Assembly (NCBI GenBank): GCA_963793305.1
Contig: CAWBZV010000023.1
Coordinates: 1-52,450 of the forward strand
Source: an uncultured Gemmatimonadales bacterium
Lineage (GTDB): Bacteria > Gemmatimonadota > Gemmatimonadetes > Gemmatimonadales > Gemmatimonadaceae
Direction: 5' to 3'
DNA: 52,450 nucleotides
A program made the translations under genes and the position numbers. The notes below the pieces were generated by a model, which did no database searches, was not told where the DNA came from, and worked only from the letters and a program-made list of their open reading frames with translations. This document shows positions 4,585 to 48,142 of this stretch, one piece after another (within the stretch, counting starts at the first letter, position 1; each line of letters opens with the position of its first letter).

Positions 4585-4624
4585 GTCGGGGCTTCCGGCA
4601 CTCCCTTGTCAGGGTATCCCTGAC
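4585..4624. promoter_or_regulatory. Tandem 17-bp operator boxes upstream of nirK
   Basis: GTCGGGG-CTT-CCGGCAC (4585) and a perfect GTCAGGG-TAT-CCCTGAC (4608). Confidence 0.75.
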
Positions 4625-4695
4625 GCTGACGCGGGGGCTCTTCCTGGGACGATGGGCTGGAGGGGGGCGCCGCTCGTCGGGCGAGAATCGCCGAC

Positions 4696-4902
4696 ATGCG
4701 CATCGTCACGCGCCTCGACGTGAAGGTGATCATCGGCGAGGGGGACAACGCGGCCCTTTTCACGGAGATGGAGACGACCGCGCCGGCGCCGGCCGTCACG
4801 GTCGTCGCGGAGTGGCACCAGATCCGCAATGGGAAGATCGCGCGTGCGCAGTCGGCGTTCGACGGCCGTCCGTTCGCAGCGATGTTCTCGGCGAAACCGT
4901 AA
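4696..4902 (+). pseudogene. SnoaL/NTF2-like protein C-terminal fragment
   Basis: DVKVIIGEGDNAALF...VAEWHQIRNGKIARAQSAFDGRPF. At 68 aa the N-terminal helix appears to be absent. Confidence 0.55.
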
Positions 4903-5037
4903 GGGAGCGCTCAGTCGGGTTACGGTCAAAGGGGTCCGTCGAAAGGAATCCTTGACGGGGCGAGTCACGGCCGTCGGTCCCCGACCCGGTCGTATTGCCG
5001 GTGTTGGGGGCCGCGAGTGTAGAAGGCCCTCGCGGCC

Positions 5038-5082
5038 GTCGGTGAATCCCTGACAGACCTGGCCCCCGAGCTGGCGTAGCGT
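5038..5082 (+). promoter_or_regulatory. Operator box plus -10-like hexamer
   Basis: GTCGGTG-AAT-CCCTGAC (5038-5054), then TAGCGT (5077-5082) 22 nt later. Confidence 0.65.
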
Positions 5083-5091
5083 CTGCCCACT

Positions 5092-6069
5092 ATGAAACGG
5101 CATCTGGTGGTGATCGGCTTGGGGCTCGCGGCCGTCGTATTGGTGGCAGCGACGGCGTTGTGGGCGGTGTATGCTCACGACCTGAGGCTCGCGCGTGAGC
5201 GCCTTGCCGGCCGTAGTCAGGTGGTCGCGACGTCGCTCGGCACGGTGGAGTACGCCGTGGTGGGTACGGGCGAGCCGATACTCGCTGTCCACGGCGCGAG
5301 CGGCGGCTTTGATCAGGGCATCGATCTGACCGGCGCGATGGCCGAACAGGGCTATCGGATTATCGCTCCTTCCCGCTTCGGCTACCTTCGCTCGACGATG
5401 CCCGCCGGAGCGACGACCGCCATGCAGGCCGATGCTTACGCCCAACTGCTCGACCGCCTCGGCATTGACGAGGTCTTCGTGGTCGGCATCTCGGCGGGTG
5501 CGTGGTCGTCCATCCAGTTCGCGATCCGATATCCGCAACGGTGCCGGGCGCTCGTGCTCCTCGTCCCGGCGAACTACCTACCGCCGGGGACGTTTATCCA
5601 CGGGGGCGCCGTCGCGAGAGCGATCTTGAGTTCCGATTTCGTTGCCTGGGCAGCGCTCAAACTGATGCCGCTCGCGTCAGGTGGACTGACGCGGACCTTG
5701 CTCGGCACGGACGATGCCGTTGTGCGTTCAGCAGATCCCAGCGAGAGGACCCGAATCCGGGAAGTGCTCGACCATCTGCTGCCGATACAACCGCGCGTCG
5801 CGGGGACGGATTTTGACGTTCGGACCGCCGCCGCGCGCGAGCCCTATGCCATCCAACGCATCGTCTGTCCTGTCCTGACGATCAGTGCCGACGACGATCG
5901 ATTTCAGACGAACGACCGAGCGAGGTACATTGCGGCCACCGTCCCTGACGGTCGCGATATCGTGTTTCCGACTGGCGGTCATGCGTTGGTCGGCAACTAC
6001 GCCGCGGCCTTGGTGGACGTTAGGACCTTCCTCCAGGGTGTGCAGACGGCGCGGGATCATGCTCCCTGA
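5092..6069 (+). CDS. Membrane-anchored alpha/beta hydrolase
   Basis: N-terminal TM, HGASGG oxyanion region, GISAG nucleophile elbow and GGHAL catalytic His. Confidence 0.9.
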   Translation: MKRHLVVIGLGLAAVVLVAATALWAVYAHDLRLARERLAGRSQVVATSLGTVEYAVVGTGEPILAVHGASGGFDQGIDLTGAMAEQGYRIIAPSRFGYLRSTMPAGATTAMQADAYAQLLDRLGIDEVFVVGISAGAWSSIQFAIRYPQRCRALVLLVPANYLPPGTFIHGGAVARAILSSDFVAWAALKLMPLASGGLTRTLLGTDDAVVRSADPSERTRIREVLDHLLPIQPRVAGTDFDVRTAAAREPYAIQRIVCPVLTISADDDRFQTNDRARYIAATVPDGRDIVFPTGGHALVGNYAAALVDVRTFLQGVQTARDHAP

Positions 6070-6276
6070 GCGCTGGTCCCAGGACATGGTGACGATCTAT
6101 CAGCGCTCGCCTGGCGTTCGGTCGCGCCGTGGCTGGCGTCAACGAGTTCAGGTCGATGCGGCATTGATTCATGGACACGCCGCCGTTGTCTGCTGCGCTG
6201 CGAGTGGGACGCCCTGAGTAAGCTGGCGAATTCGCCGCCCAACGGGCGTGTCACGGCAGGCCGTTCCGCCAGGGAA

Positions 6277-7089
6277 TCACGCCCCGATCGCAGGTTGCTG
6301 GTCGACACCCCAGCGTCGAGCTAGCGTACGCGGGCCCCATACGGCGATGACGATTGCGGCCGCACATGCAGTGATCAGGCCGGTGATACGCGGGTCGTAG
6401 TAGGAACCGTAGATCGGGAACAGCATCCAACTGAGGTTCTGCATCGCGTGGCACAGCGTGACGGCGAAGACGCTTTTGCCCGTGTTGTTGTACAGCCAGA
6501 CGAGCAGAACCCGTGCCGCTACCGTGCCAACACACCACCAGGCGATCCATGTCGGAGGCCGGCGAGCTTCCAGCAGCGGTATGATGTGAAACCCGGCCCA
6601 CGCCAACCCCAAGAGCATGCTCGCGCCGAGCGCGTTCCATCCAGCTTGCATCGCATCGATGGCGTATCCGGACCATCCGAGCTCCTCACCCAGGGCACCT
6701 ACGAAGAAGACCAGCAACAGGGCCAGGGCCGTCAGCACCGTAAATCGCGGGGCGGGAATCGGCACCCCCGTCAGGCGCATCAGCCCGTAGGAGCACGCCA
6801 TGACGCCGGGCCCCAAGAGGATGATCGGCGCATACCAGACCATTCCTCTGATGCGCTGGTAATCGAAGGATCTTTTCAGCAGGGCAATCATGCCTGCCGT
6901 CTTGCTCTCTCCATATACGAGAATCAGCGCCGCTGCGGCTGGACACAGGAAACTGAGCGCGCTCACCGGGAGGCCAGGTAGTAGCTGACGCGCCGTCGAG
7001 GCGCCGGCCAACCAGAACGGAATACAGAGGGCAATAACGATTAAGAAGAATGTCTGAGGCGATCTGGTGCGCGGCGGAACTACGGACAT
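6277..7089 (-). CDS. CPBP (CAAX/Abi) intramembrane metalloprotease
   Basis: LGEELGWSGY, WAGFH and CHAMQN motifs in a multi-TM protein. The start at 7089 overlaps the upstream stop. Confidence 0.88.
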   Translation of the reverse strand: MSVVPPRTRSPQTFFLIVIALCIPFWLAGASTARQLLPGLPVSALSFLCPAAAALILVYGESKTAGMIALLKRSFDYQRIRGMVWYAPIILLGPGVMACSYGLMRLTGVPIPAPRFTVLTALALLLVFFVGALGEELGWSGYAIDAMQAGWNALGASMLLGLAWAGFHIIPLLEARRPPTWIAWWCVGTVAARVLLVWLYNNTGKSVFAVTLCHAMQNLSWMLFPIYGSYYDPRITGLITACAAAIVIAVWGPRTLARRWGVDQQPAIGA

Positions 7090-8094: not shown

Positions 8095-8565
8095 CTACGC
8101 CCACGACGCGAGAATACGCGACACGAGCGTCGGCCGAGGCGATACCGTCGTGCCGAGGTCGTCTGCGACCGACACGCCACGCACACCGACGACCGATGCC
8201 GCGGCAGCGGCGGCCCTGTCGCGCTCGGCCGCGCTCGCAAACGGGCCGAGGAGCGTTACGACGCCCTCTTCGGCGCGGACGCGCACGTCGCGCTTGACGT
8301 TATTCAGTACGGCCAAGACAAGCGCGGTGTCGGTTGGACCCCCTTCGAATGTCCGGCGCGTGCGCATGCGTTGCGTCATCCCGCGGATGCCCGACACACC
8401 CCACACCGCCTGCTCGACCGCCGTCAGCTCGGCGGGAGTGTCGACGATGCCGGTCAGCGATACGATGCCTGATTCCACCCGCGCACTGACGCTCTGAATG
8501 CCGGCACCGAGCTCACGGCATACGGCCACCAGCACCTGTTCGTGTAGCCTGCGATCATCGGACAC
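8095..8565 (-). CDS. BON domain protein (two BON domains)
   Basis: GTG start after GGAGGAG. Contains VESGIVSLTGIV and AEEGVVTLLG...VVGVRGV. Paralog of 46145-46621. Confidence 0.85.
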   Translation of the reverse strand: MSDDRRLHEQVLVAVCRELGAGIQSVSARVESGIVSLTGIVDTPAELTAVEQAVWGVSGIRGMTQRMRTRRTFEGGPTDTALVLAVLNNVKRDVRVRAEEGVVTLLGPFASAAERDRAAAAAASVVGVRGVSVADDLGTTVSPRPTLVSRILASWA

Positions 8566-8593: not shown

Positions 8594-8684
8594 AGTATCG
8601 TTCGGGCCGCGTCCGGAGTCTGTCGGGTGAAAGCTGCGAGGGTGTCGGGGAGTCCCTTACACGGCGTGTCGGGCGTTCTGGCGT
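8594..8684 (-). promoter_or_regulatory. Three operator boxes plus -10-like GATACT
   Basis: Boxes at 8622 (GTCGGGT-GAA-AGCTGCG), 8644 (GTCGGGG-AGT-CCCTTAC) and 8668 (degenerate). GATACT lies on the minus strand at 8599-8594. Confidence 0.65.
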
Positions 8685-8772: not shown

Positions 8773-9225
8773 TCAGCCTACCGGCGTGCGTGGCACGCTG
8801 GACGGACGCGAGCGCGAAAGGCGGATTCGCCCGCGGGGATTCGCGCAGAGGAATGGTGCGGCGACGACGACGATCACGAGGGTGGGATAGAACCACGCGA
8901 CGGTGATGTCGAAACCCAGAATCCCATCTGCCCACTGCGGGCCTGCGACGAACCGGGCCACGAGGCTTGCGAACACGAGCGACAGCGAGCACCACGTGGC
9001 GCTCAGCACGACGCGGGCGCTTCGGTCCAACGCAGGTGCTTCGCGGATCGATGCGTGGACGATCGTCAGGATGAGCGCCGCGCCAATCGCGGCTGACGCG
9101 ATTCCACCCCACGGCTCTCTGAAGAGGGGCGTGAGCACCAGGGTCCGGATCATCCCGGTCACGATGATCGCGGCCATCAAACCGAACCAGACTCCCAGCA
9201 CAACGGCGGGGCGGACAAAGCGCAT
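8773..9225 (-). CDS. Hypothetical four-helix membrane protein
   Basis: MRFVRPAVVLGVWFGLMAAIIVTGMIRTLVLTPLF...; four hydrophobic segments. Confidence 0.6.
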   Translation of the reverse strand: MRFVRPAVVLGVWFGLMAAIIVTGMIRTLVLTPLFREPWGGIASAAIGAALILTIVHASIREAPALDRSARVVLSATWCSLSLVFASLVARFVAGPQWADGILGFDITVAWFYPTLVIVVVAAPFLCANPRGRIRLSRSRPSSVPRTPVG

Positions 9226-9260: not shown

Positions 9261-9299
9261 GTCGGGGAATGTCCGACGGCGGTCGAGCAATCGCCCGAC
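9261..9299. promoter_or_regulatory. Tandem operator boxes, near-identical to 24882-24920
   Basis: GTCGGGG-AAT-GTCCGAC (9261) and TCGAGCA-ATC-GCCCGAC (9283). Confidence 0.7.
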
Positions 9300-10653: not shown

Positions 10654-11361
10654 TTGATCAGCCTGGACGCACTTCCTCGGGTTCCGTTCCTCGACCAGCT
10701 GTCGCTTGTGGCACGGCGCGCGCTGGCGGCTCGTGCCTCGGTATGGCAGTTCCGCACTGGTGAAGTGCTCTGGACCGCCGGCAGCCCGATCGATCGCATG
10801 CTCGTTGTGATCGAGGGTGAGGTGCGCGTGATCCGGGAGTCGGGTGGGCGTCAGCATGTGCTGCACACCGAGGGTCCGGGTGGGACCTTGGGTGAGGTGC
10901 CGTTCTACAGCGGCGGATTGGCGCCGGCGACCGCTATCGCCACCGTGGCGACGCAGTGTCTGATATTGTCGCGCGAGGCGATCGAGGCGGCGATCGTGGC
11001 CGACCCCGCGGTGGCGTGGGTGCTGCTCGACCGCCTGGCATCGCGTGTACGGGGACTGGTGGAGCGAGTCGATCGATTGGCGTTGCAGAGCGCCACGACC
11101 CGGCTGATCGGGCTCTTGCTCGCCAAAGTTCCGCGAACGACGATCGGTGGCGACGCCGAGGTGAGCCTTGGCATGTCGCAGGAAGCGCTGGCTGCGGAGC
11201 TCGGGACTGTGCGCGAGGTTGTGGTACGTGCGCTCCGATCGTTGCGAGAGGGCGGACTGATCGCTAGCGCCGGCCGCGGGCGCGTTCACATCGAGGATGT
11301 TGCTGCGCTCCGCCGAATGATGGCCGATGCTGACTCGGCGGCAGCAGACGATCCGGTATGA
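10654..11361 (+). CDS. Crp/Fnr family transcriptional regulator
   Basis: cNMP-type domain (VVIEGEVRV...GTLGEVPF) and HTH SQEALAAELGTVREVVVRAL. There is no FNR Cys cluster. Confidence 0.92.
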   Translation: MISLDALPRVPFLDQLSLVARRALAARASVWQFRTGEVLWTAGSPIDRMLVVIEGEVRVIRESGGRQHVLHTEGPGGTLGEVPFYSGGLAPATAIATVATQCLILSREAIEAAIVADPAVAWVLLDRLASRVRGLVERVDRLALQSATTRLIGLLLAKVPRTTIGGDAEVSLGMSQEALAAELGTVREVVVRALRSLREGGLIASAGRGRVHIEDVAALRRMMADADSAAADDPV

Positions 11362-36946: not shown

Positions 36947-39026
<2,080 letters not shown>

Positions 39027-39028
39027 CG

Positions 39029-40267
39029 TCAGAGGCGCGGGGCGGGTGCCGTCTTGGTGCTGCGCTGCTCGGACACGATGACCCGATCATCCGGCTCGAG
39101 CGCGCTCTGAACGATCTCCGTGTTCGTGTCGTCGTCGAGACCGAGGGTGGCCGCCACGCGAACGGGCTGTCCCTGGCGCAGCACCCAGAGGTGGGCCGCC
39201 GAGGCTGGCCCGGTGGACGCTCCGCGGAATCCGCCGGGGACATAGCGTAGTGCCTGATCGGGAACTCGAGGAACGTTCCGGCGGCGGGCCGTCACGATCC
39301 GTGTCGTCGCGGTCATGCCGGGCTTGAGCGCGAGGTCGGCGTTGCTCACGGTCACCACGACGTCGTAGGTCACGACGTTCTGCACTGTCTGGGGCGATTG
39401 ACGGACCTGAGCGACGACGCCGGTGAAGACGCGATCGGGGAACGCCTCGACGGTGAACGTGGCCGTGTCGCCTTCCTTCGTGCCGCCGATGTCGCTCTCG
39501 CTGATGTTCGCGTCGACCTCCATCTTCGTGAGGTCGGTGGCGATCAGGAACATGGTCGGAGTCTGAAAGCTCGCGGCCACGGTCTGGCCCATGGTGACAT
39601 TGCGGGAGACGACGGTGCCGTTGACCGGTGACACGATGTTGGTGTAGCCGAGGTTGATCTGCGCGGCTTCGAGGGCGGCCTGGCGCTGGGCGATGGCGGC
39701 CGAGTCGAGCGCGATCTGTGCTTGGGCCTGGTCGTAGAGGTCTTGCGAGTTGTCGAGTGCATCGCGCGTCACGTAGTCGTGCTGTTGCAGCGCGACATTC
39801 CGCTCGTACGTGATCTTCGCGTAGGACAAATTTGCGCGGTCCTTGATCAGCTGCGCTTTGGTTGTCTCGAGGTTCGCGCGGGCCTGATCGACCGCCGTTT
39901 GGTAGGGGCGTGGGTCGATCTTGGCGCAGATCTGGCCTTTTTTGACGCGCGTGTTGAAATCGCAATACAGCTGCTGGATCACGCCGGAGACGTAGGTCCC
40001 GACGATAATGGTCAGGACCGGATTGACGGTGCCGGTGGCGGTGACTGCCCGGGTGACGTTGCCCTGGGTGACGGCCACGGTCGTATAGCGGACCGTGGGC
40101 GGGCGATGCGTAACCCACCATATGAGCACGGCGCTCACGACGACGATCGGTGGGACGACGGCGAGCCAGCGCCGACGCGCGTGCCGCGTGGGGCGGCGTT
40201 CCGTCGCCGTGGTTGGCGGCGGTGCCGGTGGTGCGACGGTGCGTGGTGGTGTGAGAACGTCTGGCAT
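39029..40267 (-). CDS. macA: MacA-type periplasmic adaptor subunit
   Basis: TM, then ATGTVNP, IVSPVNGTVVSRNV..GQTVAASFQTP and LKPGMTA. Confidence 0.9.
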   Translation of the reverse strand: MPDVLTPPRTVAPPAPPPTTATERRPTRHARRRWLAVVPPIVVVSAVLIWWVTHRPPTVRYTTVAVTQGNVTRAVTATGTVNPVLTIIVGTYVSGVIQQLYCDFNTRVKKGQICAKIDPRPYQTAVDQARANLETTKAQLIKDRANLSYAKITYERNVALQQHDYVTRDALDNSQDLYDQAQAQIALDSAAIAQRQAALEAAQINLGYTNIVSPVNGTVVSRNVTMGQTVAASFQTPTMFLIATDLTKMEVDANISESDIGGTKEGDTATFTVEAFPDRVFTGVVAQVRQSPQTVQNVVTYDVVVTVSNADLALKPGMTATTRIVTARRRNVPRVPDQALRYVPGGFRGASTGPASAAHLWVLRQGQPVRVAATLGLDDDTNTEIVQSALEPDDRVIVSEQRSTKTAPAPRL

Positions 40268-40274
40268 ATCGTGA

Positions 40275-40318
40275 ACGATGGCGCGTGTGCGCGCGGTATC
40301 TGTCGGCGATCCCCTGAC
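40275..40318. promoter_or_regulatory. Operator box in divergent macA / DUF4136-USP promoter
   Basis: GTCGGCG-ATC-CCCTGAC (40302), with CATCGT on the minus strand at 40280-40275. Confidence 0.65.
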
Positions 40319-40374
40319 ACGACGAGAGGGTGTGGCCGACGCTTGCGGCAACGCGCGACCCCCATCATGTGCCC

Positions 40375-40497
40375 ATGTCGATTCTTCTCATTGGACTCAT
40401 GTTCATGGCGGCCGACCTCGTGCTGGGAATGGTTGTCGGCAACGTGCTGCAGCACCACGCGGAACCGGTGCGGATCGTTCGCCGGGGGACCGCATGA
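40375..40497 (+). CDS. 40-aa single-TM protein
   Basis: MSILLIGLMFMAADLVLGMVVGNVLQHHAEPVRIVRRGTA. The stop overlaps the next ATG (ATGA). Confidence 0.55.
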   Translation: MSILLIGLMFMAADLVLGMVVGNVLQHHAEPVRIVRRGTA

Positions 40498-41045
40498 GAC
40501 GGCTCTTCGCTGCCGCAGTGGTGACCGTTGGCGCGTGCGCACCCGGTGTGCACGTGCGGACGTCCACCGCGCCCGACGCTACGTTCACGCGTGATCGCAC
40601 GTTCCGTTTCCTTCCCGTGCCGGCGGTGAATCGCGCAGTGCGTATCGAGATCACTCGGGCGCTCGAGGAGCGTGGCTATCGAGCGGCGAGCCCGACGGCC
40701 GATCTCTCGATCGCCTACTATGTTGGAACGACCTCGCGTTTTTCCGCGCGCTCCGATGATCGGGTCGAGGAGTTCATGGGACTGCCGTGGGGATGGTGGC
40801 CGGAGCGGGAAGTGCTCGTGTCCGACCGCGGCACCGTCATCATCGACATCTTCGATGGCAGTGGCTTGCATCTCGAGTGGCGGGGCACCGGTACGTCCGA
40901 TTTTCCGGACGATCCTGTCGACTCGGCGGCCGCCGTTGGCCGGCTCGCCCACCGGATCATGCACGATTTCCTGGGTTACCCGACCGGGGAGCCCTGGCCA
41001 CGGCCCGTGGCTATATCTTCCTGCACGATATGCCCGCCATTCTGA
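40494..41045 (+). CDS. DUF4136 lipoprotein
   Basis: Lipobox VGAC; ALEERGY, ADLSIAY and GTVIIDIFD...WRG. Confidence 0.85.
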   Translation: MRRLFAAAVVTVGACAPGVHVRTSTAPDATFTRDRTFRFLPVPAVNRAVRIEITRALEERGYRAASPTADLSIAYYVGTTSRFSARSDDRVEEFMGLPWGWWPEREVLVSDRGTVIIDIFDGSGLHLEWRGTGTSDFPDDPVDSAAAVGRLAHRIMHDFLGYPTGEPWPRPVAISSCTICPPF

Positions 41046-41836
41046 TCGCCACCCACGGGGGTGTCGGGGCGGATGGCGCGATCCGTGTTGGATCGCGGCT
41101 CGCCGAACGGTTAGGCGTCGCGGCTCACGCGGTTATCGTGTACGAACCTCCGTCGGTGGTCGACGTTGGCGCGCTGCTACCGTACATGACGATACCGGCC
41201 GAAGAAGAGCGTGTGCGCGGGGCGCTCTTGGACGCGGTGGTCGAGCAACTCAGACGCTGTCAGGTCACGAACGTGACGCCGGCGGTGCGCTCGGGGTTCA
41301 TTGTGTGGGAGACGGTCACGGCCGCGCGGGCCGTCGGTGCTGACCTTATTGTCGCGGGTCTCGGACCTCATGACCTGACCGCGCGTGCGCTCGGCGGCGA
41401 AACGGCGCTGCGCCTGGCGCAAGACGCCAGCACGCCCGTGCTGGCGGTCCCTGCGGACGCCGCTGCGATACCGCGTCGGGCGCTCGTCGCCGTCGATTTC
41501 AGCCCGACCAGTCTGCGTGCGGCACACGTCGTGGCGGGGTGGTTGCGCGCCGGCGACGAGTTGCATCTGGCTCACGTCGCGCCGCCGCCGGCTCAGGACC
41601 GACTCGACGCCCTGCGGCGAGACCTGGCCATCTCCCCTGGGGTGGTGATGAGCACCACCGAGCTCGCCGGTTCACCCGCGAGCGCCCTGCTCGATGACGC
41701 CGGACGTACCGGCGCGGACGTGATTGCGCTCGGCAGCCATGGATATGGCCTGTGGAAGCGACTGCTGCTGGGCAGCGTCGCTTCCAAGGTTATCCGTCTC
41801 GCGACTACGTCCGTCCTTGTCGTGCCGGTGGCATGA
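41030..41836 (+). CDS. Universal stress protein (tandem Usp domains)
   Basis: ADLIVAGLG, LVAVDFS and GSHGYGLWKRLLLGSVA. Confidence 0.9.
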   Translation: MPAILIATHGGVGADGAIRVGSRLAERLGVAAHAVIVYEPPSVVDVGALLPYMTIPAEEERVRGALLDAVVEQLRRCQVTNVTPAVRSGFIVWETVTAARAVGADLIVAGLGPHDLTARALGGETALRLAQDASTPVLAVPADAAAIPRRALVAVDFSPTSLRAAHVVAGWLRAGDELHLAHVAPPPAQDRLDALRRDLAISPGVVMSTTELAGSPASALLDDAGRTGADVIALGSHGYGLWKRLLLGSVASKVIRLATTSVLVVPVA

Positions 41837-41843
41837 GGCCTCG

Positions 41844-43172
41844 TCACAAGGCCGACGGATACGTCTCCGGAATCTCGCCGCGCTCCCAGCGACCCGTCCG
41901 CTCGAGCGGCTCGACCGCGCGCGTGGTGTCGTAGTGCAGGACCGCATTGAACTGGCGCGGCAGCGACGCCACGAAATAGTGGCTCTGCCGCTCTGTTTCG
42001 GGGCGGTAGATCACGCCAATCGCGCGCTCAAGGCGGCGGCGCTCGAGCGCCTTTGCGGCGCCGGTTCCTGAACGCAGATCGAGTGCGAAGGCAGGTAAGC
42101 CCGTCGCGTGGAACAACGCTTCGTAGCTGTCGGGGAGGGCAGGGCGCACGTGCTTCCGTTCGGCGTTCGCGTCCCAATCGGAGGCCGCGGTCACCGTGCC
42201 GGTGTACGTCGTGAAGCCGATCGACCTCGCGCCATTGCCGTAGCGCTGCCGCGCCAGCTGTCCGATGTTCAACTCGCCCAATTCGCCCATCCCGGTGGCC
42301 CTGGCGTCGCCCACGTGAGAGTTGTGCGCCCACACGACGATCTTACCCTTCGTGTGTCCGCGCAGTACCTCCAAGGTCTCGGCCATGTGACCATCGCGGA
42401 GATTCCACGAACCGACGTGGTCGCGCACCATTGTGCGATAATAGGCCTCGGCGTTCTTGACGAGCCGGGCGTTCTGCTCCGCGTAGAAGAGGTCATCCCT
42501 TGCAATGCGGCCGTCGCGCGAGGCATAGACGCCGGCCGAGCGTCGAAGCTCGACCAGCTGTTGCACGACGGCGTTCTCGCACGAGGGGGTGAGTCCCATC
42601 GTCGCCGCGTAGCCGTACTCGGCGGGCTCAGGGCTGGCGTGATCGAAGCAGGCGTACCGCTGCGCCGCGCGCTTGGCCGCCTCTGGGTCGACGACGCGAA
42701 GGTAGGTGAGGACTGCGTCGATCGACGCGTGCAGGCTATAGAGATCAAGCCCATAGAAGCCGACCGGTGTGGCGTGTGGTCGCTCATCATTGTACTCGCG
42801 CAGCCAGCCGACGAAGTCGAGCACGTCCGCGTTCCGCCACATCCATTGCGGGAAGCGGCGAAATCCGCCGAGCGCCTCGGTCGCGTCCCCGTCATCATCG
42901 GCGCCCCGCACGTAGCGGTTGATGCGATAGGCGTCGGGCCAGTCGGCCTCGGCCGCCACGGCGACGAATCCTTTTTCTCGAATCAAGCGCTTCGTGATCT
43001 CAGCGCGGATCCGGTAGAACTCATGCGTGCCGTGCGATGCCTCGCCGATCAGGACGACGCTGGCGTGGGACACGACATTGAGCACGAGGTCGAAGTCGGC
43101 CGCGGTGCCGTGCAACCGCTCGGCGTGGTCGGCGACCGACTGCACCACGCCGCGAATGGTGGTCGCGCTCAT
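41844..43172 (-). CDS. Erythromycin esterase family protein
   Basis: IGEASHGTHEFY, EADWPDA, FYGLDLYS, VWAHNSH and ERAIGVIYRPETE. Confidence 0.92.
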   Translation of the reverse strand: MSATTIRGVVQSVADHAERLHGTAADFDLVLNVVSHASVVLIGEASHGTHEFYRIRAEITKRLIREKGFVAVAAEADWPDAYRINRYVRGADDDGDATEALGGFRRFPQWMWRNADVLDFVGWLREYNDERPHATPVGFYGLDLYSLHASIDAVLTYLRVVDPEAAKRAAQRYACFDHASPEPAEYGYAATMGLTPSCENAVVQQLVELRRSAGVYASRDGRIARDDLFYAEQNARLVKNAEAYYRTMVRDHVGSWNLRDGHMAETLEVLRGHTKGKIVVWAHNSHVGDARATGMGELGELNIGQLARQRYGNGARSIGFTTYTGTVTAASDWDANAERKHVRPALPDSYEALFHATGLPAFALDLRSGTGAAKALERRRLERAIGVIYRPETERQSHYFVASLPRQFNAVLHYDTTRAVEPLERTGRWERGEIPETYPSAL

Positions 43173-43847
43173 GGTGTCATCCTCCTGGCGAGCAACGCGC
43201 GGACCTCGTCGTCGCTGACCTGATCGAAGTATTCGTACCAGGCACCGACGGCGACGAACGGGTCGGGAGCCGCCAGCACGACGACCGAGTCGGCGACCGA
43301 CCGGAGTGACTCCACTGCGTCGGCCGATGCCACGGGCGCGGCGACGACGATGCGTTCGGGCGCGAGCTCGGTCAGCGCGACCACCGCGGCGTACATCGTC
43401 GAGCCGGTCGCCAACCCGTCGTCGACGATGATGACGGTCTTGCCCTTGATGTGCGGGAATGGTCGATCATCCCGGTAGGCGTGCTCGCGTCGGATGATCT
43501 CCTCTTGCTCCTCTTGCACGACCTGTTGGATCTGCGCCGGACGCAGCCCGAGGGTGTCGACGGCTTCGCGGTTCAGCACAATGGCGCCGTCGGAGGCCAA
43601 GGCCCCGAACGCGAATTCTTCGTGGCCCGGCACGCCGAGCTTCCGCACGAGGAAGACGTTGAGCGGTGCGTGCAGTGCGTCGGCGACCGCCGCCGCGACC
43701 GGTACGCCACCGCGCGGGAGGGCGAGCACAATGACATTCTGTGCGGTCCGCGTACTGAGTCAACTTCTGGCCGAGCGCCACACCGGCATCGAATCGATCG
43801 TGCAAGTAGACGCGACGGCCGCTGGATGTGAAGAATGATGTGGTCAT
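43169..43847 (-). CDS. Phosphoribosyltransferase family protein, frameshifted near 43740
   Basis: DRFDAG..L, then LALPRGGVPVA, VRKLGVPGHEE and IVDDGLATGST. Confidence 0.9.
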
Positions 43848-43902
43848 CGTAACCTCTCGGGCTCGTTACCTCGCGACTCCAAGGAACCAACGATCCGACG
43901 TA

Positions 43903-44691
43903 TCATGGTGCCACCAGCACCGAACATGGCGCCTGCTGCAACACTGATTCGACTACGGGACCCAGTCCGGCGTTCGGCCGCGCATGACGGCCGAGCGCGA
44001 TGAGGTCGACGCGCTCCCGGCGGGCGATGTCGACGAGTACGCGCGCGGCGTCGCCCACCGCGACCCGACTCGGGATCGAGGACCCCGGGCGATGCGGAAG
44101 CGCAGCGCGCGTTTGATCGAGCAGCTCGGTGGCCGCGCAGTCGTACGTCCGCCGCCAGACCTGGTAGATGTCCGGGGCCAGTTGAAGCGCGGGCGTCACG
44201 TGAATGAGCTCGGCGTGTCCGTCGGACTCGAGGAGCGAGAGCGCGACCTGATCGGCTTCGATGGTCGATCCGCCGAAATCGGCCGTGAGCATCACCCGTC
44301 CGATCGAGCCGCGCTCGGATGGCGATACGACGAGCACGGAACGACGCGCATACTGCACGATGTCCGCGGCCAGTCGATGATCTCCGGTGCCGAAGCCGAT
44401 CACCACCAGCGCCGCGCCCCACGTCTCGGCGGCGGCGGCAATGGCGGGCCCGATGGCTCCGCGGATCTCGTAGACCGGGATCGTGTCTTCGTTGCCGGCC
44501 ACGAGCGCGAGACGTTCCTTGATCTTCGCGATATCGGATGGCGCCACGGTGACGATGGTGGCTGGCACGCGCCACTGCTTGGCGAGCGCCAGTCCCATTC
44601 GTATCGTCACGATCGCGGCTGGGCCGGCGTTCGTCGCGATCAGCACGCCGGCTCGTCCATCGCATGGTTGCATCTTGTCGTTGGTGCTCAT
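43903..44691 (-). CDS. Universal stress protein
   Basis: GGAGG RBS; VMLTADF and DLIALGRH...CSVLVAP. Confidence 0.85.
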   Translation of the reverse strand: MSTNDKMQPCDGRAGVLIATNAGPAAIVTIRMGLALAKQWRVPATIVTVAPSDIAKIKERLALVAGNEDTIPVYEIRGAIGPAIAAAAETWGAALVVIGFGTGDHRLAADIVQYARRSVLVVSPSERGSIGRVMLTADFGGSTIEADQVALSLLESDGHAELIHVTPALQLAPDIYQVWRRTYDCAATELLDQTRAALPHRPGSSIPSRVAVGDAARVLVDIARRERVDLIALGRHARPNAGLGPVVESVLQQAPCSVLVAP

Positions 44692-44702
44692 TGTCGCCTC
44701 CT

Positions 44703-45629
44703 CTACTCCTTTTCCGTCGCTATCGGCGGTGCGATCAGCACGGAGCACTGTGCTTTCCGCAACACGCCTTCGGCGACGCTGCCGAGCGTCAGTCGATCGA
44801 ACAGGCCGCGACCGTGACTGCCGAGCGCGATCAAGTCGGCCCTATTCGCATTCGCGACTTCGAGGACGACCTTTTGGGTCTCGCCGTGCTCGAGGTGGGT
44901 CACGACTTTCGCGTTCGGTGGGAGCGGGAGCGAGCGAACCAACTCGTCGGCCAACGCCTGCACGCCGGCTTCGTAGACGTGGAACCACGTCGGCGCGCCG
45001 GAACCGCCCATATCCATCCACGGCCACGCATGCACCAGGTGCACCGTGACATCATCAGCGGCGAACGCCAACGCGAGTCTGGCCGCGCGCAGTGAGGCTG
45101 GGCTGAAATCCGTCGCGATGACGATCGAGCGCAGTACCGGTCGGCTCCCGGGCGACGCAGCGAGCACCGGTACTGACGTCCGGTGGAGGACGGCGATCGC
45201 GGGCTCGACGCCGAGCAGGCGGTCGATGGGGTCGTGGCGGCCAATGCCCATCGCGATAATCGTGGCGCCACGCGCCTTGGCTCGGCCGGCGATGCACTCG
45301 GCGGTGAGGCCTTCTTCGATGACCAGCGGGACATTATCGGCGTTGGCCGTACGGCGAAGCTGCGCTTGAACGGCCTCGGTCACGCCCTCCCGGCGTTGCC
45401 GATCGAGGTCGTAGGTACTCGAAGTGTACGCCAGGGCTTCAGAGGTCAGTGGCTCAAGGACCGTCAACGCCTCGATGGGGACCTGGCGCCGTGTGGCGAA
45501 TAGATGAGCAAGTCGTGCGGCCGGGTCGGAGCCGAGACCACCTTGTGTTGCCAACAGGACGCCGTCAGCGAGCGGCAGCTGGCCGGCCGCGACGGGCTTG
45601 GTTGAGATCAGCAGTTCGGCTGCGGGCAT
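44703..45629 (-). CDS. Universal stress protein (tandem Usp domains)
   Basis: IAMGIGRH...RLLG, IVIATDFS and GSHGRGLFDRLTLGSVAE. Confidence 0.9.
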   Translation of the reverse strand: MPAAELLISTKPVAAGQLPLADGVLLATQGGLGSDPAARLAHLFATRRQVPIEALTVLEPLTSEALAYTSSTYDLDRQRREGVTEAVQAQLRRTANADNVPLVIEEGLTAECIAGRAKARGATIIAMGIGRHDPIDRLLGVEPAIAVLHRTSVPVLAASPGSRPVLRSIVIATDFSPASLRAARLALAFAADDVTVHLVHAWPWMDMGGSGAPTWFHVYEAGVQALADELVRSLPLPPNAKVVTHLEHGETQKVVLEVANANRADLIALGSHGRGLFDRLTLGSVAEGVLRKAQCSVLIAPPIATEKE

Positions 45630-45671
45630 CGCGATATCCTCGTCAGAAGGGATTGATCGAGCGTCGACTGC

Positions 45672-45738
45672 AAGGTGCGCGACGCGACGAGGCGGGAGAG
45701 TCGGGCGAAGCCTTGAATCCTGTGAGGGATTACCGGAC
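45672..45738 (-). promoter_or_regulatory. Tandem operator boxes plus -10-like CACCTT
   Basis: GTCGGGC-GAA-GCCTTGA (45700), GTGAGGG-ATT-ACCGGAC (45722) and CACCTT on the minus strand at 45677-45672. Confidence 0.65.
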
Positions 45739-46197
45739 GGGGAGCACGACGAGCTCGCCAACCATTGACGGCAGGTGCGAGGGGATCGCGCACCGAAACG
45801 GGTAGAGCCCTGGTTCTTTGGCGACGTAGGTCGCGTGGGTAACGGACTGACCCGGCAGGCTCACGGCGATATCGGAAAGGACGAACGAGTGCGCGTCGTC
45901 TTCGGGATTGATGAAGGTCAGTGCCAGCGTGTCGCCCGTGTATACCGTGAGCGTGCTGGGCTCGAACGCGTACACTTCCTTGCCGTCGAGGACGCCACCC
46001 GTCGCGAAATCCTTGGCGAGAAACGGGTAGGTCGGCGCGAGCTCTTTGACGAGCAGCGGCACGGTCGTGATCGTGAACTGGCGCGTTCTCGGCGTGTACG
46101 CGCGGCCACAACCGATCACGAGTACGGCGAGCGCGAGCGCTCTTCTAGTTCCAAATCGAGCGAATGCGCGATGCGAGGGGGGAAGGTGCTGGTGCAT
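45730..46197 (-). CDS. Cupredoxin-domain lipoprotein
   Basis: Lipobox VIGC; FEPSTL, DAHSF and FRCAIPSHLPSM. The start is uncertain because it overlaps the BON gene. Confidence 0.8.
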   Translation of the reverse strand: MHQHLPPSHRAFARFGTRRALALAVLVIGCGRAYTPRTRQFTITTVPLLVKELAPTYPFLAKDFATGGVLDGKEVYAFEPSTLTVYTGDTLALTFINPEDDAHSFVLSDIAVSLPGQSVTHATYVAKEPGLYPFRCAIPSHLPSMVGELVVLPVR

Positions 46198-46621
46198 CCA
46201 TGGCATCGTTCAACCATACGCCTCGCACGCCCGGCACGGTAGCGACCGCCGCGCTGATTGCGTCGCGGTCGGTCGACCTGCCGAACACCCCGATGACCGT
46301 CACCTTGCCCTCTTCCACCTGGATGCGGAGCCGTTGGTGACCCTCGCGCGCGAGTAGCGCTAACACGTCGCTGGCGAGCGTCCGATCGGTCGGGCCCTCC
46401 GGGTACGATCGACGCGCGCGCAGGCGCTGGGCGATCGCCTGCACGTTGGGTACGCTCCAGATGGCGCGCTCGACGGCGGTGCGCTGATCGGGCGTATCGA
46501 CGACGCCACTCACCTGAACGATGCCATTCTCGACTTGGGTGTTCACGCTGGCAATGCCGGGTCCGAGCACGCGGCATACGGCGACGGTTACTTGCTCATG
46601 CAGTTGGCGATCGCGCGACAT
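46145..46621 (-). CDS. BON domain protein, paralog of 8095-8565
   Basis: AAGGAGG RBS; MSRDRQLHEQVTVAVCRVLG versus MSDDRRLHEQVLVAVCRELG. Confidence 0.88.
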   Translation of the reverse strand: MSRDRQLHEQVTVAVCRVLGPGIASVNTQVENGIVQVSGVVDTPDQRTAVERAIWSVPNVQAIAQRLRARRSYPEGPTDRTLASDVLALLAREGHQRLRIQVEEGKVTVIGVFGRSTDRDAISAAVATVPGVRGVWLNDAMDAPAPSPLASRIRSIWN

Positions 46622-46648
46622 CGGAACCTCCTTGAGAGATGTGTCTCC

Positions 46649-46825
46649 AGGATGACGCGCGCGGCACTCTCGTGGCGTCGGGTATTGCCTCACGCTGTGT
46701 CGGGAGACTCCCGGTCTCGAGCGGCGATCGGACGGCGCGCGCGCCAGCGCAGGCCCCGCAAGGGAATCCCTGACACACCGTCCGTGTAGCCCCTGACTTC
46801 GATTGCCGCGGCTCCGACCCAAGTT
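46649..46825. promoter_or_regulatory. Divergent promoter with two pairs of operator boxes
   Basis: Boxes at 46677 (GTCGGGT-ATT-GCCTCAC), 46699, 46758 (GCAAGGG-AAT-CCCTGAC) and 46781 (TCCGTGT-AGC-CCCTGAC). CATCCT on the minus strand (46654) and CAAGTT on the plus strand (46820). Confidence 0.7.
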
Positions 46826-46831
46826 TGAGCC

Positions 46832-47368
46832 ATGAGACACGCGCTCGCGGCACTGGGCCTCCTTCTCGCAGCGGCTGGCGTTCGGGGTCAGGATTCGACC
46901 GGGATCCATCCGATGGCTGTGGTCACGACCGGCATCGCGGCGCCGGTAGGGCCGTTGGCCGCCGAGGCGCGGGTCGCGCCGACCATATATGTCGGGCTGG
47001 CGTTTCACGCAGGTCGATCGCGGACGTCGTTCGAGATCGGACAGTCGTTCACGACATTCTCGACCGGTGGCGACCAGCATGCGTCTATCTCCGTTACCGC
47101 CATCACGGTCACGCGCGTCGTCCCGATCGCGTCGAAGCTCGAGACCTATGTGGCCCTCGGCCTGGGTCAGTCTTGGGCCACCGGCTCGGCGGTCGACACG
47201 CGCATTCTGCCGAACGCGTCCCATTTTGGCGTTGCTACGCTGGCGGGAACCGGTCTCCGATACGGTGGTCGCGTTGGGGGACTGCTGGCGATTCAGTACA
47301 TGGGACTCGTGCACAGTGGCTCGGTGCTCCAACTGATTCCCGTGCAGCTGGGCGTCAGCCTCCGCTGA
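46832..47368 (+). CDS. Putative small outer-membrane beta-barrel protein
   Basis: Signal peptide, alternating hydrophobic strands (YVALGLG, AGTGLRY) and the ending PVQLGVSLR. Confidence 0.6.
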   Translation: MRHALAALGLLLAAAGVRGQDSTGIHPMAVVTTGIAAPVGPLAAEARVAPTIYVGLAFHAGRSRTSFEIGQSFTTFSTGGDQHASISVTAITVTRVVPIASKLETYVALGLGQSWATGSAVDTRILPNASHFGVATLAGTGLRYGGRVGGLLAIQYMGLVHSGSVLQLIPVQLGVSLR

Positions 47369-47378
47369 ACCGCCGCAG

Positions 47379-47618
47379 TCAGTGCTGTTCCTCGCGTTCC
47401 CGCTCATCGAGCGTCCGACGGATCGTCGCCAGATCGGCGGTGGGGGACGGCGCGAGTCTCGTCTTCAGCGTGCGCAACAACCGCAAGCTGCGGGCGACGG
47501 CATCGCCCAGCCGATGCAGCAGTTGCCCGCGCGCCGCGACGTTGAGCAGCAGATCGGAGAGTCGCTCGAATTCTTCGGCTGCCACGATTGGTGCGGGTCC
47601 GACCCCGGTGGGCGTCAT
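47379..47618 (-). CDS. Hypothetical helical protein
   Basis: MTPTGVGPAPIVAAEEFERLSDLLL...; preceded by the box-like GTCCGCA-AAA-CCCCTAC (47644). Confidence 0.4.
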   Translation of the reverse strand: MTPTGVGPAPIVAAEEFERLSDLLLNVAARGQLLHRLGDAVARSLRLLRTLKTRLAPSPTADLATIRRTLDEREREEQH

Positions 47619-47656
47619 GCCGCGTTTCGTGGGCGCTGCGCTTGTCCGCAAAACCC

Positions 47657-48142
47657 CTACGCGACGGGAGGGGCGATCAGCACTGAACAATCCGCCGCGC
47701 GGAGCACGGCCTCCGCCACGCTGCCCAGCATCAGGCGATCGACGAAGCCCTTCCCATGGCTACCAAGCGTGACGAGATCCGCGTGATGCGTGACCGCGAT
47801 CGCGCGAATCACCCGGTGGGTCGCTCCGCGCTCGAGGTGAGTCGAGATCAAAGCTTTGGGTGGCAGATCGAGGCATCGAATCAGCTGATCGAATTTCGCC
47901 TGTACGCCGGCCCGGTAGACGTGGCGCCAGACCGGCGCACTGGACCCGCCGAGGTCCATCCAGGGCCACACATGCACGAGGTGCACGGCGGCGTCGTCTG
48001 CGGCGAGCGCCATGGCCAGCTGCGCGGCGTGTTGCGCGGCGGGACTGAAGTCGGTGGCGATCACGATTGACCGCATCGGGGCCACTGCTCTCGGTTGCGC
48101 GGCGAGCACCGGCACGGATGCGCAATGCAGCACGGCGATCGT
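47657..48142 (-). pseudogene. Universal stress protein, 5'-truncated paralog of 44703-45629
   Basis: IAVLHCASVPVLAA...IVIATDFS...WPWMDLGGSSAPVW...GSHGKGFVDRLMLGSVAE. Homology stops near 48142. Confidence 0.85.

Follow-up and report, generated by a model that had tools for sequence, protein, structure and literature searches.

One of the closest described systems is the DevR/DosR regulon of Mycobacterium tuberculosis. The DevR box is composed of half-sites G4G5G6A7C8T9 and occurs in tandem, one conserved box with a weaker neighbour in helical phase, with centres at -42.5 and -63.5 (PMC3177182). The boxes described here share this tandem, phased arrangement, and their candidate regulator is likewise a NarL/LuxR-type response regulator, predicted to control its own gene, adjoined by a USP gene and a GAF-containing kinase. 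USPs, nitroreductases and a P-type ATPase are common to both gene sets, which also share a phosphofructokinase / PRTase plus erythromycin-esterase-like / USP set, as in Rv2028c-Rv2030c (PMC4410610). In the OsdR/OsdK system of Streptomyces coelicolor, the LuxR-type regulator has numerous sites, clustered near its own gene and also lying upstream of USP and stress genes. Its 16-nt consensus, AGGGCCGATCGGCCCT, conforms to the DevR box, and its regulon, like the one proposed here, was predicted from a motif upstream of orthologues (PMC5069765). Finally, the lxa (low-oxygen-activated) locus of Burkholderia cenocepacia is a comparable USP-rich island of about 50 genes, in which a single motif recurs at 17 intergenic positions and the regulators are encoded within the island (PMC3721108).

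The window (52,450 nucleotides) is an entire contig, C23, of a 5.7-Mb soil Gemmatimonadaceae MAG (G000). A preliminary description had reported a recurrent 17-bp palindrome with a perfect copy at 4608. This copy, GTCAGGGTATCCCTGAC, is found once (4608-4624) and in none of 100 shuffles. With up to 2 mismatches the window contains 10 matches, a number reached by none of 100 shuffles, which average 1.74 and have at most 5; the match at 14841, inside a cytochrome c gene, is probably due to chance. A weight matrix refined on intergenic matches yields a 19-bp palindrome, tGTCRGGGAWTCCCYGACa. This matrix was used to score the 25 single positions listed previously, of which 17 score 9.3 to 23.0 bits (4608, 5038, 8644, 9261, 24411, 24434, 24882, 24904, 28970, 29657, 33049, 33958, 40302, 45722, 46677, 46758 and 47644). 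Five others are weak (4.5 to 7.0 bits) but occupy the phased 22/23-bp partner spot (4585, 9283, 28948, 45700 and 46699), while the boxes claimed at 8622 (-3.7 bits), 33027 (-4.2 bits) and 46781 (0.3 bits) do not score. The range 31894-31997, also indicated, does include three boxes. Gene identities in the window come from Pfam, and gene calls and start codons from a simple custom caller; with the box-gene distances they leave the earlier gene assignments essentially intact. The exception is "nirK", which is a NirK-like two-domain multicopper oxidase gene scoring under the TIGR02376 cut-off. The features are as follows.

3509-4549, minus strand: NirK-like two-domain multicopper oxidase, predicted target (Pfam; TIGR02376 192 bits, cut-off 296)
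4585-4601: weak phased partner of the 4608 box, 6.8 bits
4608-4624: strongest box, perfect palindrome, 23.0 bits, flanked by the NirK-like oxidase gene, whose start is 67 bp from the box centre, and a small ORF, 4696-4902 (80 bp)
5038-5054: box, 20.9 bits, 46 bp before the ATG of an alpha/beta hydrolase gene, 5092-6069
8644-8660: box, 19.6 bits, 87 bp before a BON gene, 8095-8565 (minus strand)
9261-9277 and 9283-9299: box (19.5 bits) and weak phased box (4.5 bits), 44 bp before a hypothetical gene, 8773-9225 (minus strand)
10654-11361, plus strand: Crp/Fnr-family regulator (Pfam cNMP_binding and HTH_Crp_2)
24411-24450: two boxes in tandem at a spacing of 23 bp, 24411 scoring 15.5 bits and 24434 scoring 21.6 bits; downstream only a short ORF, 24395-24697, with an XRE-type HTH remnant
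24882-24920: two boxes in tandem at a spacing of 22 bp, 24882 scoring 17.3 bits and 24904 scoring 9.3 bits, followed on one strand by BON (24979-25434), nitroreductase (25481-26107) and LigD primase-polymerase (26127-27074) genes, a putative operon because they are adjacent
28948-28986: two boxes at a spacing of 22 bp, 28948 scoring 7.0 bits and 28970 scoring 16.3 bits, the latter centred 88 bp before a DUF4342 gene, 29066-29329
29657-29673: weak box, 10.3 bits, upstream of a SCO4226-like (DUF4242) gene, 29906-30091; assignment uncertain
31915-31983: boxes 31915 (11.5 bits), 31945 (13.6 bits) and 31967 (6.8 bits), flanked by a flavodoxin gene, 31370-31858 (minus strand), and a hypothetical gene, 32051-32893 (plus strand)
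33049-33065: box of moderate score, 9.8 bits, roughly 62 bp upstream of a triple-BON gene, 33119-33781
33958-33974: box, 14.8 bits, 44 bp before an L,D-transpeptidase gene, 34010-35503, followed on the same strand by hydrolase (35496-36164) and USP (36158-36946) genes
40302-40318: box, 19.6 bits, 43 bp before a MacA/HlyD gene, 39029-40267 (minus strand), followed by MacB pieces 38415-39026, 37631-37942 and 36937-37623; also 238 bp before a DUF4136 gene, 40548-41045, and a USP gene, 41030-41836
45700-45738: two boxes at a spacing of 22 bp, 45700 scoring 5.1 bits and 45722 scoring 16.2 bits, the latter centred 101 bp before a minus-strand run of USP (44703-45629), USP (43903-44691), PRTase (43169-43729) and erythromycin-esterase-like (41844-43172) genes
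46677-46715: two boxes, 46677 scoring 16.6 bits and 46699 scoring 4.6 bits, the former centred 64 bp before a BON gene, 46145-46621 (minus strand), then a cupredoxin gene, 45730-46119
46758-46774: box, 18.8 bits, 66 bp before a hypothetical gene, 46832-47368 (plus strand)
47644-47660: box, 14.5 bits, 67 bp before a short ATP-synt_D-like ORF, 47379-47585 (minus strand), and immediately downstream of a USP gene, 47657-48265 (minus strand)

Intergenic DNA is enriched in the motif. Genome-wide, 30 intergenic matches reach at least 16 bits against a mean of 2.3 (maximum 5) in first-order Markov simulations, and 16 reach at least 18 bits against 0.4, although these counts are somewhat inflated because the matrix was trained on those same matches; fixed-pattern counts and scans of other genomes are free of this circularity. 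Coding DNA represents 86% of the genome but includes only 22 matches of at least 16 bits. Several high-scoring "coding" matches on contig C10 resemble over-extended starts. Among the 30 strong intergenic sites, partner boxes (at least 5 bits) are observed 9 times at exactly 22 or 23 bp on either side, and never at the 32 other offsets between 12 and 45 (0.045 expected per offset). Over 45 site-gene pairs, the box centre is mostly located 43-101 bp upstream of the start codon, the distances grouping around 44, 65 and 88 bp. The genes downstream encode USP, BON, nitroreductase, NirK-like, flavodoxin, L,D-transpeptidase, MacA and PRTase/erythromycin-esterase proteins. The 19-bp palindrome is therefore a real, intergenic, phased DNA motif, and literature searches found no publication describing it.

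Alternatively, the palindrome might bind no protein and be a REP/MITE-like dispersed repeat, a terminator or an RNA hairpin instead; a perfect copy could fold into a 7-bp stem with a 3-nt loop. However, most boxes retain only 3 to 5 of the 7 possible stem pairs even though each half fits the consensus, information content outside the 19 bp is zero with flanks that are not conserved, and the boxes lie before genes rather than after them. A T-run follows the box on either strand in 0 of 18 window boxes, no box coincides with a terminator-like site, and there are no Rfam matches. Such an origin is thus extremely improbable.

The sites are clustered: C23 and a paralogous part of C10 together account for 21 of the 30 strong intergenic sites. 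Matches of at least 16 bits number 11 on C10 (69-136 kb), 10 on C23 and 2 at C3:567 kb, in agreement with binned counts; the C3 pair (567080/567103) is paralogous to the 24411/24434 boxes. Between paralogous promoters of C23 and C10 or C3 (a paralogue was found for 11 of 14 sites), boxes are identical at 186 of 217 positions (86%) and flanks at 1084 of 1575 (69%).

The preliminary description had proposed a single factor, possibly of NarL/FixJ type and encoded elsewhere. This fits a single REC+GerE (NarL/LuxR-type) response regulator encoded outside the window, at C10:94080-94742, the pairing being deduced from genome context (guilt by association). The gene is preceded by a 17.5-bit site at -69, and its orthologues in two congeners (89% and 86% identity) by strong sites at -69/-113 and at -53/-93/-116; when six upstream regions are aligned, the box is conserved and the flanks have diverged. 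At 37 Gemmatimonadota orthologue loci there are 43 matches of at least 13 bits against 2 for a control matrix, compared with 6 against 3 at 22 loci from other phyla. A site of at least 13 bits occurs within 300 bp upstream in 17 of 33 evaluable Gemmatimonadota orthologue operons; no site of at least 10 bits was found upstream in 13 of the 33. The recognition helix, KTVDTYKQR, is invariant among Gemmatimonadaceae orthologues. In this genus the adjoining kinase is a PAS-GAF-PAS-GAF histidine kinase with HisKA, split over two frames in this assembly and intact in relatives G005 and G003; no HisKA_3 kinase was found near the regulator in G000. NarL-type regulators are not usually partnered by a HisKA kinase in place of a HisKA_3 one. 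Another locus (L050) shows the order USP, box, HisKA_3 kinase, regulator, PAS kinase. Taken together, these observations make it roughly 65% probable that the palindrome is the operator of this response regulator, a predicted activator of a stress, low-oxygen or dormancy-type regulon.

Relatives also carry site clusters. Nine of 18 pattern matches in G005 are on the regulator's contig and 3 of 10 in G003 lie within 10 kb of the regulator, and the targets in both belong to the same families (USP, BON, cytochrome c, flavodoxin, DUF4136, L,D-transpeptidase and P-type ATPase). A crude whole-genome pattern count is not correlated with the presence of the regulator among 31 relatives: the fixed-pattern excess over a reversed control averages 2.8 in 14 relatives with an orthologue (at least 53% identity) and 2.9 in 16 without. 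Many of these matches, GC-rich at the centre, probably fall in coding DNA.

Could another protein read the boxes? A Crp-like gene is present in both islands (10654-11361 in the window; C10 and C5 carry paralogues), and the lxa low-oxygen island couples USP genes to Anr-related regulators and a TGA-N6-TCA motif (PMC3721108). However, no box of at least 9 bits precedes the window's Crp-like gene, and homologues (E<=1e-20) occur in only 12 of 31 relatives. G011 (100% complete) and G006 (95% complete) have none yet carry boxes beside the response regulator, while in G005 and G003 the Crp-like gene is on another contig or 1.3 Mb from the box cluster. Moreover, a 17-19 bp box with a single central base is not a 5-N4/6-5 site. 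An island-encoded Crp/Fnr-family reader is therefore very improbable. It is somewhat less improbable, but still quite unlikely, that the boxes are the operator of another regulator (e.g. PadR, XRE or a factor encoded elsewhere) of which the response regulator is merely one target. Autoregulation-like placement cannot separate binding to its own promoter from regulon membership, and PadR genes are found both at 140-691 of the window and in the G003 region, the latter with a 13.2-bit box 158 bp upstream. Against this, no PadR or XRE gene occurs in the box-dense part of G005 C63 or among the annotated called genes of C10 from 62 to 145 kb. The response regulator is the only regulator gene common to all three annotated site clusters (G000 C10, G005 C63 and G003), and the boxes accompany its orthologues into other genera and orders.

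If the response regulator is the reader, its phosphorylated dimer would bind each box, with a second dimer binding cooperatively at the phased neighbour. The promoter-proximal box, centred near -42, would replace the -35 element, giving class II activation as for DevR. The signal would arrive via the adjacent PAS-GAF-PAS-GAF kinase or, in other genera, via a HisKA_3 kinase co-transcribed with the regulator. As C23 has no copy of the regulator gene, the window boxes would be served in trans. In promoters inspected by eye, the box is followed after 18-22 nt by a -10-like hexamer. Counted from the box centre, the starts of TANNNT hexamers peak at +31 and +53, a signal of 3 and 4 occurrences respectively. 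A -10-like TAGCGT 21 nt after the 5038 box and no visible Shine-Dalgarno sequence suggest that the alpha/beta hydrolase mRNA is leaderless, as does TATTGA 22 nt after the 33958 box for the L,D-transpeptidase mRNA. Box-bearing intergenic regions in 39000-48500 yielded no -35/-10 pair of the sigma-70 type, suggesting factor-dependent promoters. This argues against the regulator being a repressor released under stress, as do the position of the box upstream of the -10-like hexamer, without overlap, and the tandem upstream boxes, which fit the DevR activator layout at -42.5/-63.5 (PMC3177182). A box covering the -35 region can also block RNA polymerase, but we consider repression unlikely.

Several features distinguish the proposed activator from DevR. 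A PDB search gives 121 bits for DevR against 132 for VraR and 122 for NarL, so that DevR is no closer. The DevR residues K179, K182 and N183, which we take to be its DNA contacts, align to K, D and T here (DevR chain 3c3w). The GGGA...TCCC arms are 1 base apart instead of 6, with GTC/GAC outside them, and tandem spacing is 22-23 bp instead of 21 bp. Since the operator is spaced differently and only one of the three DNA-contact residues is the same, the regulator would be an analogue rather than a DosR orthologue. The kinase carries HisKA, not HisKA_3, in this genus, and the phylum is Gemmatimonadota. The motif was earlier said to be distinct from FNR, CRP and DosR boxes, and it does differ from the DevR box (PMC3177182), from the OsdR consensus (PMC5069765) and from the Anr/Fnr-like TGA-N6-TCA (PMC3721108). 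With OsdR only the AGGG/CCCT arms are in common, and they are 5 bp closer here (PMC5069765). The lxa motif is attributed to CRP-family regulators (PMC3721108), whereas the 17-19-bp palindrome is attributed here to a LuxR-type response regulator, which, in a phylum that has hardly been studied, is probably the equivalent of the tuberculosis dormancy switch.

The exact palindrome GTCRGGG-N3-CCCYGAC, which the preliminary description had proposed as the recurrent mark of a candidate regulon, is present only once in the window, at 4608. The recurrence itself is borne out when mismatches are allowed: ten matches are found at no more than two mismatches against 1.74 expected, and none of 100 shuffles reaches ten. 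A palindromic weight matrix was derived from the window's ten best sites and underwent three rounds of refinement on genome-wide intergenic matches, with genes called by our own codon-bias caller (5,238 genes, 86% of the genome coding). Among the 25 single positions originally listed, 17 score 9.3-23.0 bits, five are weak (4.5-7.0 bits) and lie at the spacing of a phased partner, and three have no score. Across the genome, 30 intergenic matches reach at least 16 bits and 16 reach at least 18 bits, compared with 2.3 (maximum 5) and 0.4, respectively, in ten first-order Markov simulations of intergenic DNA. Coding DNA, although 6.4 times larger, contains 22 matches of at least 16 bits, and some of those on C10, another contig of the same assembly, sit in apparently over-extended gene starts of our caller. 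These genome-wide matrix counts are to some extent circular, the matrix having been trained on the same matches; this does not apply to the fixed-pattern test or to scans of other genomes.

The logo reads t-GTCRGGGAWTCCCYGAC-a, a 19-bp palindrome hereafter called the box and numbered by its 17-bp core. The most constrained positions are T2/A16 (2.0 bits), followed by A8/T10, G5/C13 and G1/C17. Information content does not exceed 0.09 bits at any position beyond the 19 bp, indicating that the box is not part of a longer repeat. Boxes are frequently in tandem. Partners of at least 5 bits are observed nine times at exactly 22 or 23 bp on either side of the 30 strong intergenic sites (where both members are strong, the pair counts twice), and never at the 32 remaining offsets between 12 and 45; the expectation is 0.045 per offset. 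Matches of at least 16 bits are concentrated on C10 (11, between 69 and 136 kb), on C23, the window contig (10), and at C3:567080/567103 on a third contig (2), a distribution with which 20-kb bins agree. Between paralogous promoters of C23 and C10 or C3, the 19-bp boxes are identical at 186 of 217 positions and the flanks at 1084 of 1575 (11 pairs; three of 14 sites are without a paralogue).

The centre of the box mostly lies 43-101 bp before a start codon (45 site-gene pairs); the distances cluster near 44, 65 and 88, about 22 bp from one cluster to the next. This placement and the information-free flanks argue against a dispersed repeat of REP or MITE type. A palindrome of this kind might also correspond to an intrinsic terminator or a structured RNA. 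None of 18 window boxes is followed by a T-run, most keep only 3-5 of the seven possible stem pairs and Rfam gives no match at gathering thresholds, which together make an RNA hairpin or terminator unlikely. A sigma-70 and terminator scan of 39000-48500 returned two promoter-like and two terminator-like sites, none of them at a box.

In the six promoters with the shortest distances (5038, 9261, 33958, 40302, C10:120387 and C10:125754), a -10-like hexamer read by eye begins 18-22 nt past the box (TAGCGT, TAGTCA, TATTGA, CATCGT, TATTGA and TATACG, respectively) and ends 6-9 nt before the ATG, and no Shine-Dalgarno sequence is visible by eye. Judged from sequence, these six look like promoters of leaderless mRNAs with the box centred near -42. 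Counted from the box centre, TANNNT starts are most frequent at +31 (three occurrences) and +53 (four occurrences), a weak signal that is consistent with the reading by eye. Compared with the DevR layout, the 22-23 bp tandem spacing is clear, and the position of the boxes relative to transcription start is a prediction from the -10-like hexamers and start codons.

Predicted targets (genes preceded by boxes) and the two candidate readers
Window: NirK-like multicopper oxidase gene
Window: alpha/beta hydrolase gene
Window: all four BON genes, one of them heading a run with nitroreductase and LigD primase-polymerase
Window: DUF4342 gene
Window: flavodoxin operon
Window: hypothetical genes
Window: L,D-transpeptidase-hydrolase-USP run
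Window: MacA-MacB
Window: USP-USP-PRTase-erythromycin-esterase-like run
Window, 10654-11361, plus strand: Crp/Fnr-family regulator gene (rival reader)
C10: intact paralogues of window targets
C10: cytochrome c genes and a multihaem cytochrome operon
C10: malic enzyme gene
C10: more USP genes
C10: phosphofructokinase-PRTase-esterase run
C10:94080-94742, minus strand: REC+GerE response regulator gene, 220 aa (candidate reader)

The assembly comprises 5.72 Mb in 26 contigs with 65% G+C, and the window is the entire 52,450-bp contig. The nearest public records for one of its proteins are Gemmatimonadaceae or Gemmatimonadales MAGs, so the source is taken to be a soil Gemmatimonadaceae MAG. The contig is a rearranged mosaic with 72-91% nucleotide identity to parts of C10 (104-139 kb), C3 (547-567 kb) and C5. 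Several genes intact on C10 are broken here, namely MacB (36937-39026), a P-type ATPase (21763-23608) and COX1 fragments (1997-2926). The contig may be a second copy of the island that is decaying within one cell, or else it belongs to a co-binned relative and contains assembly frameshifts (the contamination estimate is 5.07%); the reading of the box is independent of this origin. The NirK-like gene is closely followed on its strand, at 1997-3210, by two short COX1-like ORFs of 153 and 149 aa together with a gene for a plastocyanin/azurin-like copper protein; these may be the remnant of a copper-dependent respiratory module. Another ORF of 441 aa (27441-28766), with weak alpha/beta-hydrolase matches and atypical codon usage, lies in a 2-kb stretch without called genes and may be foreign DNA.

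The LigD primase-polymerase of the window is encoded behind a tandem box, after the BON and nitroreductase genes (24979-27074). In G005, a relative with an orthologue of the C10 regulator, a gene for a LigD-type ATP-dependent ligase (L096:5339-6259) is immediately preceded by a box of 19.4 bits. Non-homologous end joining may be part of the predicted regulon. The PRTase and erythromycin-esterase-like genes are adjacent and beside USP genes both at 41844-45629 (minus strand) and at C10:110328-114130, where they also neighbour phosphofructokinase. Behind the strong tandem boxes 24411/24434 lies an ORF (24395-24697) without a Pfam match, one stretch of which by eye resembles the second half of an XRE-type helix-turn-helix. 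Homology of this region to its C3 copy ends at 24470, and the boxes could drive a remnant gene or a small RNA.

A response regulator of NarL/FixJ type, encoded elsewhere, had been put forward as a possible reader of the box, and C10 supplies a candidate. It carries Response_reg (1.1e-28) and GerE (3.6e-16) Pfam domains, faces a USP gene and a kinase gene, and has a 17.5-bit box at -69. Its PDB matches are VraR, NarL and DevR, at E 1e-34 to 1e-37 and over full or nearly full length (query residues 6-217, 7-201 and 6-213). In the receiver alignment 'DVIVLDLDMPDGDG' stands opposite 'DVAVLDVRLPDGNG' of DevR, and the aspartate of its LD is presumably the phospho-acceptor. None of the named equivalogs (NarL, UvrY/GacA, MctR, EvgA, FixJ and others) is reached, the best NCBIfam score being at most 166 bits against cut-offs of 242-343. 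The protein is therefore an unnamed member of the NarL/FixJ family.

Homologues were searched in one genome per species, yielding 60 loci. At 37 Gemmatimonadota loci (53-89% identity) there are 43 matches of at least 13 bits against two for a complemented control matrix; one extra Gemmatimonadaceae locus with a partial gene has a single match, and 22 loci of other phyla have six against three for the control. The locus of G012 (L028), a relative included in the tallies of the fixed pattern, orthologue, Crp-like gene and looser pattern, was scanned without a box match, and none of the positive results depends on this genome. Operon starts were defined by chaining same-strand genes at the 35 Gemmatimonadota loci whose end does not truncate the match; 33 of these were evaluable. 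A box lies within 300 bp upstream of the start in 17 of the 33 at 13 bits or more and in 20 at 10 bits or more, for a chance expectation of about 0.004 per 300 bp estimated from Markov simulations. The congener orthologues have boxes at -69/-113 (89% identity) and at -53/-93/-116 (86% identity). In an alignment of six upstream regions the TGTCRGG...CCTGACA box is aligned in five while the flanks diverge; the sixth (L037) aligns only the CCCGACA half. L050 is arranged as USP, box, HisKA_3 kinase, regulator and PAS-HisKA kinase.

The genes behind the boxes of G005 and of G003, a second relative with the regulator, encode USP, BON, cytochrome c, flavodoxin, DUF4136, L,D-transpeptidase, P-type ATPase and LigD ligase proteins and the regulator itself. 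Nine of the 18 fixed-pattern matches in G005 are on the 42-kb contig of the regulator, and three of the ten in G003 are within 10 kb of it. Among the genes annotated in three box clusters (C10, contig C63 of G005, and G003), it is the only DNA-binding regulator that all three have in common. All Gemmatimonadaceae orthologues share its recognition helix, KTVDTYKQR; of the homologues in other phyla, only that of Pectinatus has it too. In a subgroup with KTVETYKQR, upstream regions read by eye contain a pre-operon box of 18 bp, similar to GTCGGGA-GTTT-CCCCTAC, with one extra central base (about 2700-2760 in L052, L055 and L064; about 2780-2800 in L059). This form is seen at all four of the KTVETYKQR loci with a visible palindrome; L062 has none and L063 falls outside the comparison. 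L052, L055 and L064 also have a second half-box, GTAGGG, with its start 24 bp after the first. A de novo palindrome listing of the subgroup gave nothing informative. As far as these few sequences go, the helix substitution and the 18-bp box may reflect co-variation of regulator and operator spacing.

C23 encodes regulators of its own: a PadR protein, an XRE-type protein, the Crp/Fnr-family regulator and an ECF sigma factor. None of their genes has a box of at least 9 bits directly upstream, and a 10.9-bit match lies inside the PadR gene. The Crp-like protein is the rival candidate. Homologues of it are found in only 12 of 31 relatives, its gene is far from the box cluster in G005 and G003, and two relatives without a homologue at E<=1e-20 (G011 and G006) nevertheless have boxes beside the response regulator. 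The box is also not of the FNR or CRP type, as initially stated: it has a single central base and GTC-N11-GAC arms rather than being an even-length palindrome of 5-bp arms with an N4 or N6 spacer, and the available text of PMC3721108 gives TGA-N6-TCA as the core of CRP/FNR-type sites.

Whole-genome counts of the fixed pattern speak against the C10 regulator as the reader, since the mean excess over a reversed control is 2.8 in relatives with an orthologue (the source genome left out) and 2.9 in those without (31 relatives). Many of these matches are GC-rich at the centre, where the logo has AWT. The less strict pattern GTCRGSSAWTSSCYGAC, searched in 121 genomes of the order, occurs 24 times in the source genome against none for the control; in other genomes it mostly returns GTCGGCGATTCGCCGAC-like strings that resemble coding DNA and is too noisy for calls of presence or absence. 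Such counts are regarded as uninformative rather than refuting.

With the C10 regulator as reader, a phosphorylated dimer would bind the 19-bp box and a second dimer would bind cooperatively two helical turns away. The proximal box near -42 would stand for the -35 element and recruit RNA polymerase, the predicted effect being activation. The regulator would boost expression of its own gene and of the USP-kinase unit beside it and would serve the C23 boxes in trans. The adjacent kinase (C10:95706-98106, equivalent to L003:5706-8106) is PAS-GAF/GAF-HisKA-HATPase over two overlapping frames, while G005 and G003 have a single PAS-GAF-PAS-GAF-HisKA-HATPase ORF of about 800 aa; the split is either a frameshift mutation or an assembly indel. 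A PDB search with its PAS-GAF sensor part found a chance-level plant match only and no haem GAF of DevS/DosT type. The PAS/GAF domains and the gene content (NirK-like oxidase, cytochromes, nitroreductases, USPs, BON proteins, glycolytic enzymes and non-homologous end joining) suggest low oxygen, redox stress or growth arrest as possible signals.

The Gemmatimonadota are abundant in soil and scarcely cultivated. Literature searches on their regulons and binding motifs, on stress or anoxia transcriptomics of Gemmatimonas and on the half-site strings found neither the box nor the regulator described, nor any transcription-factor motif for the phylum (subscription journals being thinly covered). 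A transcriptome of G. phototrophica reports one USP up at 10% O2, and the available text describes no motif or regulator (PMC11406998). We rate the system as a probable tandem-box regulon under a two-component regulator of LuxR type, new in its operator and belonging to an unstudied phylum; the result is solid, useful and not very surprising. The box, its candidate regulator and about 30 predicted promoters form a concrete and testable regulon model. It would cover a stress, low-oxygen or dormancy programme including the NirK-like oxidase, respiratory cytochromes, the end-joining polymerase and cell-wall remodelling.

The nearest known system is DevR/DosR, from which the operator differs. The box was said at the outset not to be a DosR box, and it indeed lacks the GGGACT half-sites of the 18-20-bp DevR palindrome as given in the available text of PMC3177182. 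GGGAC-N4-GTCCC has four copies in the whole genome, one of them intergenic. The GGGA/TCCC arms are 5 bp nearer in the box than in either the Dev box or AGGGCCGATCGGCCCT, the consensus for OsdR (available text of PMC5069765). The regulator is about equally near VraR, NarL and DevR in the PDB search. Its helix reads AKTVDTY opposite EKTVKNY of DevR (chain 3c3w), so that two of the three residues which we take to be DNA contacts of DevR (K179, K182 and N183) differ. These differing contacts and the closer arms indicate that the regulator is not a DosR orthologue.

The DosR regulon includes USPs, nitroreductases and a P-type ATPase. Pfam identifies these on the window and C10, together with the PFK/PRTase-esterase genes. 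In M. tuberculosis the DosR-controlled Rv2028c-Rv2030c encode a USP, a PFK and a fused PRTase and erythromycin-esterase-like protein, whereas the last two are separate adjacent genes here (available text of PMC4410610). Tandem phased boxes are another shared feature, those of DevR being placed at -42.5/-63.5 in the available part of PMC3177182, as are apparent autoregulation and the adjoining USP and GAF kinase. By analogy, the system may work like DevR/DosR. The Burkholderia lxa island is a functional analogue, but with an Fnr-type motif, according to the available text of PMC3721108. On this model, a different operator code can govern the gene content of the DosR regulon, which bears on how such regulons evolve and spread among lineages. 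It is possible, at slightly less than even odds, that Gemmatimonadota possess a portable 'dormancy kit' (USPs, BON proteins, nitroreductases, PFK-PRTase-esterase, P-type ATPase, CBS and pyridoxamine-oxidase-like proteins) wired to a non-DosR master response regulator with its own operator code and a DosR-like tandem-box activator architecture. If so, the box would be the first cis-regulatory handle on survival states in this phylum, and the tuberculosis dormancy switch would be one instance of a regulon type repeatedly assembled in soil phyla.
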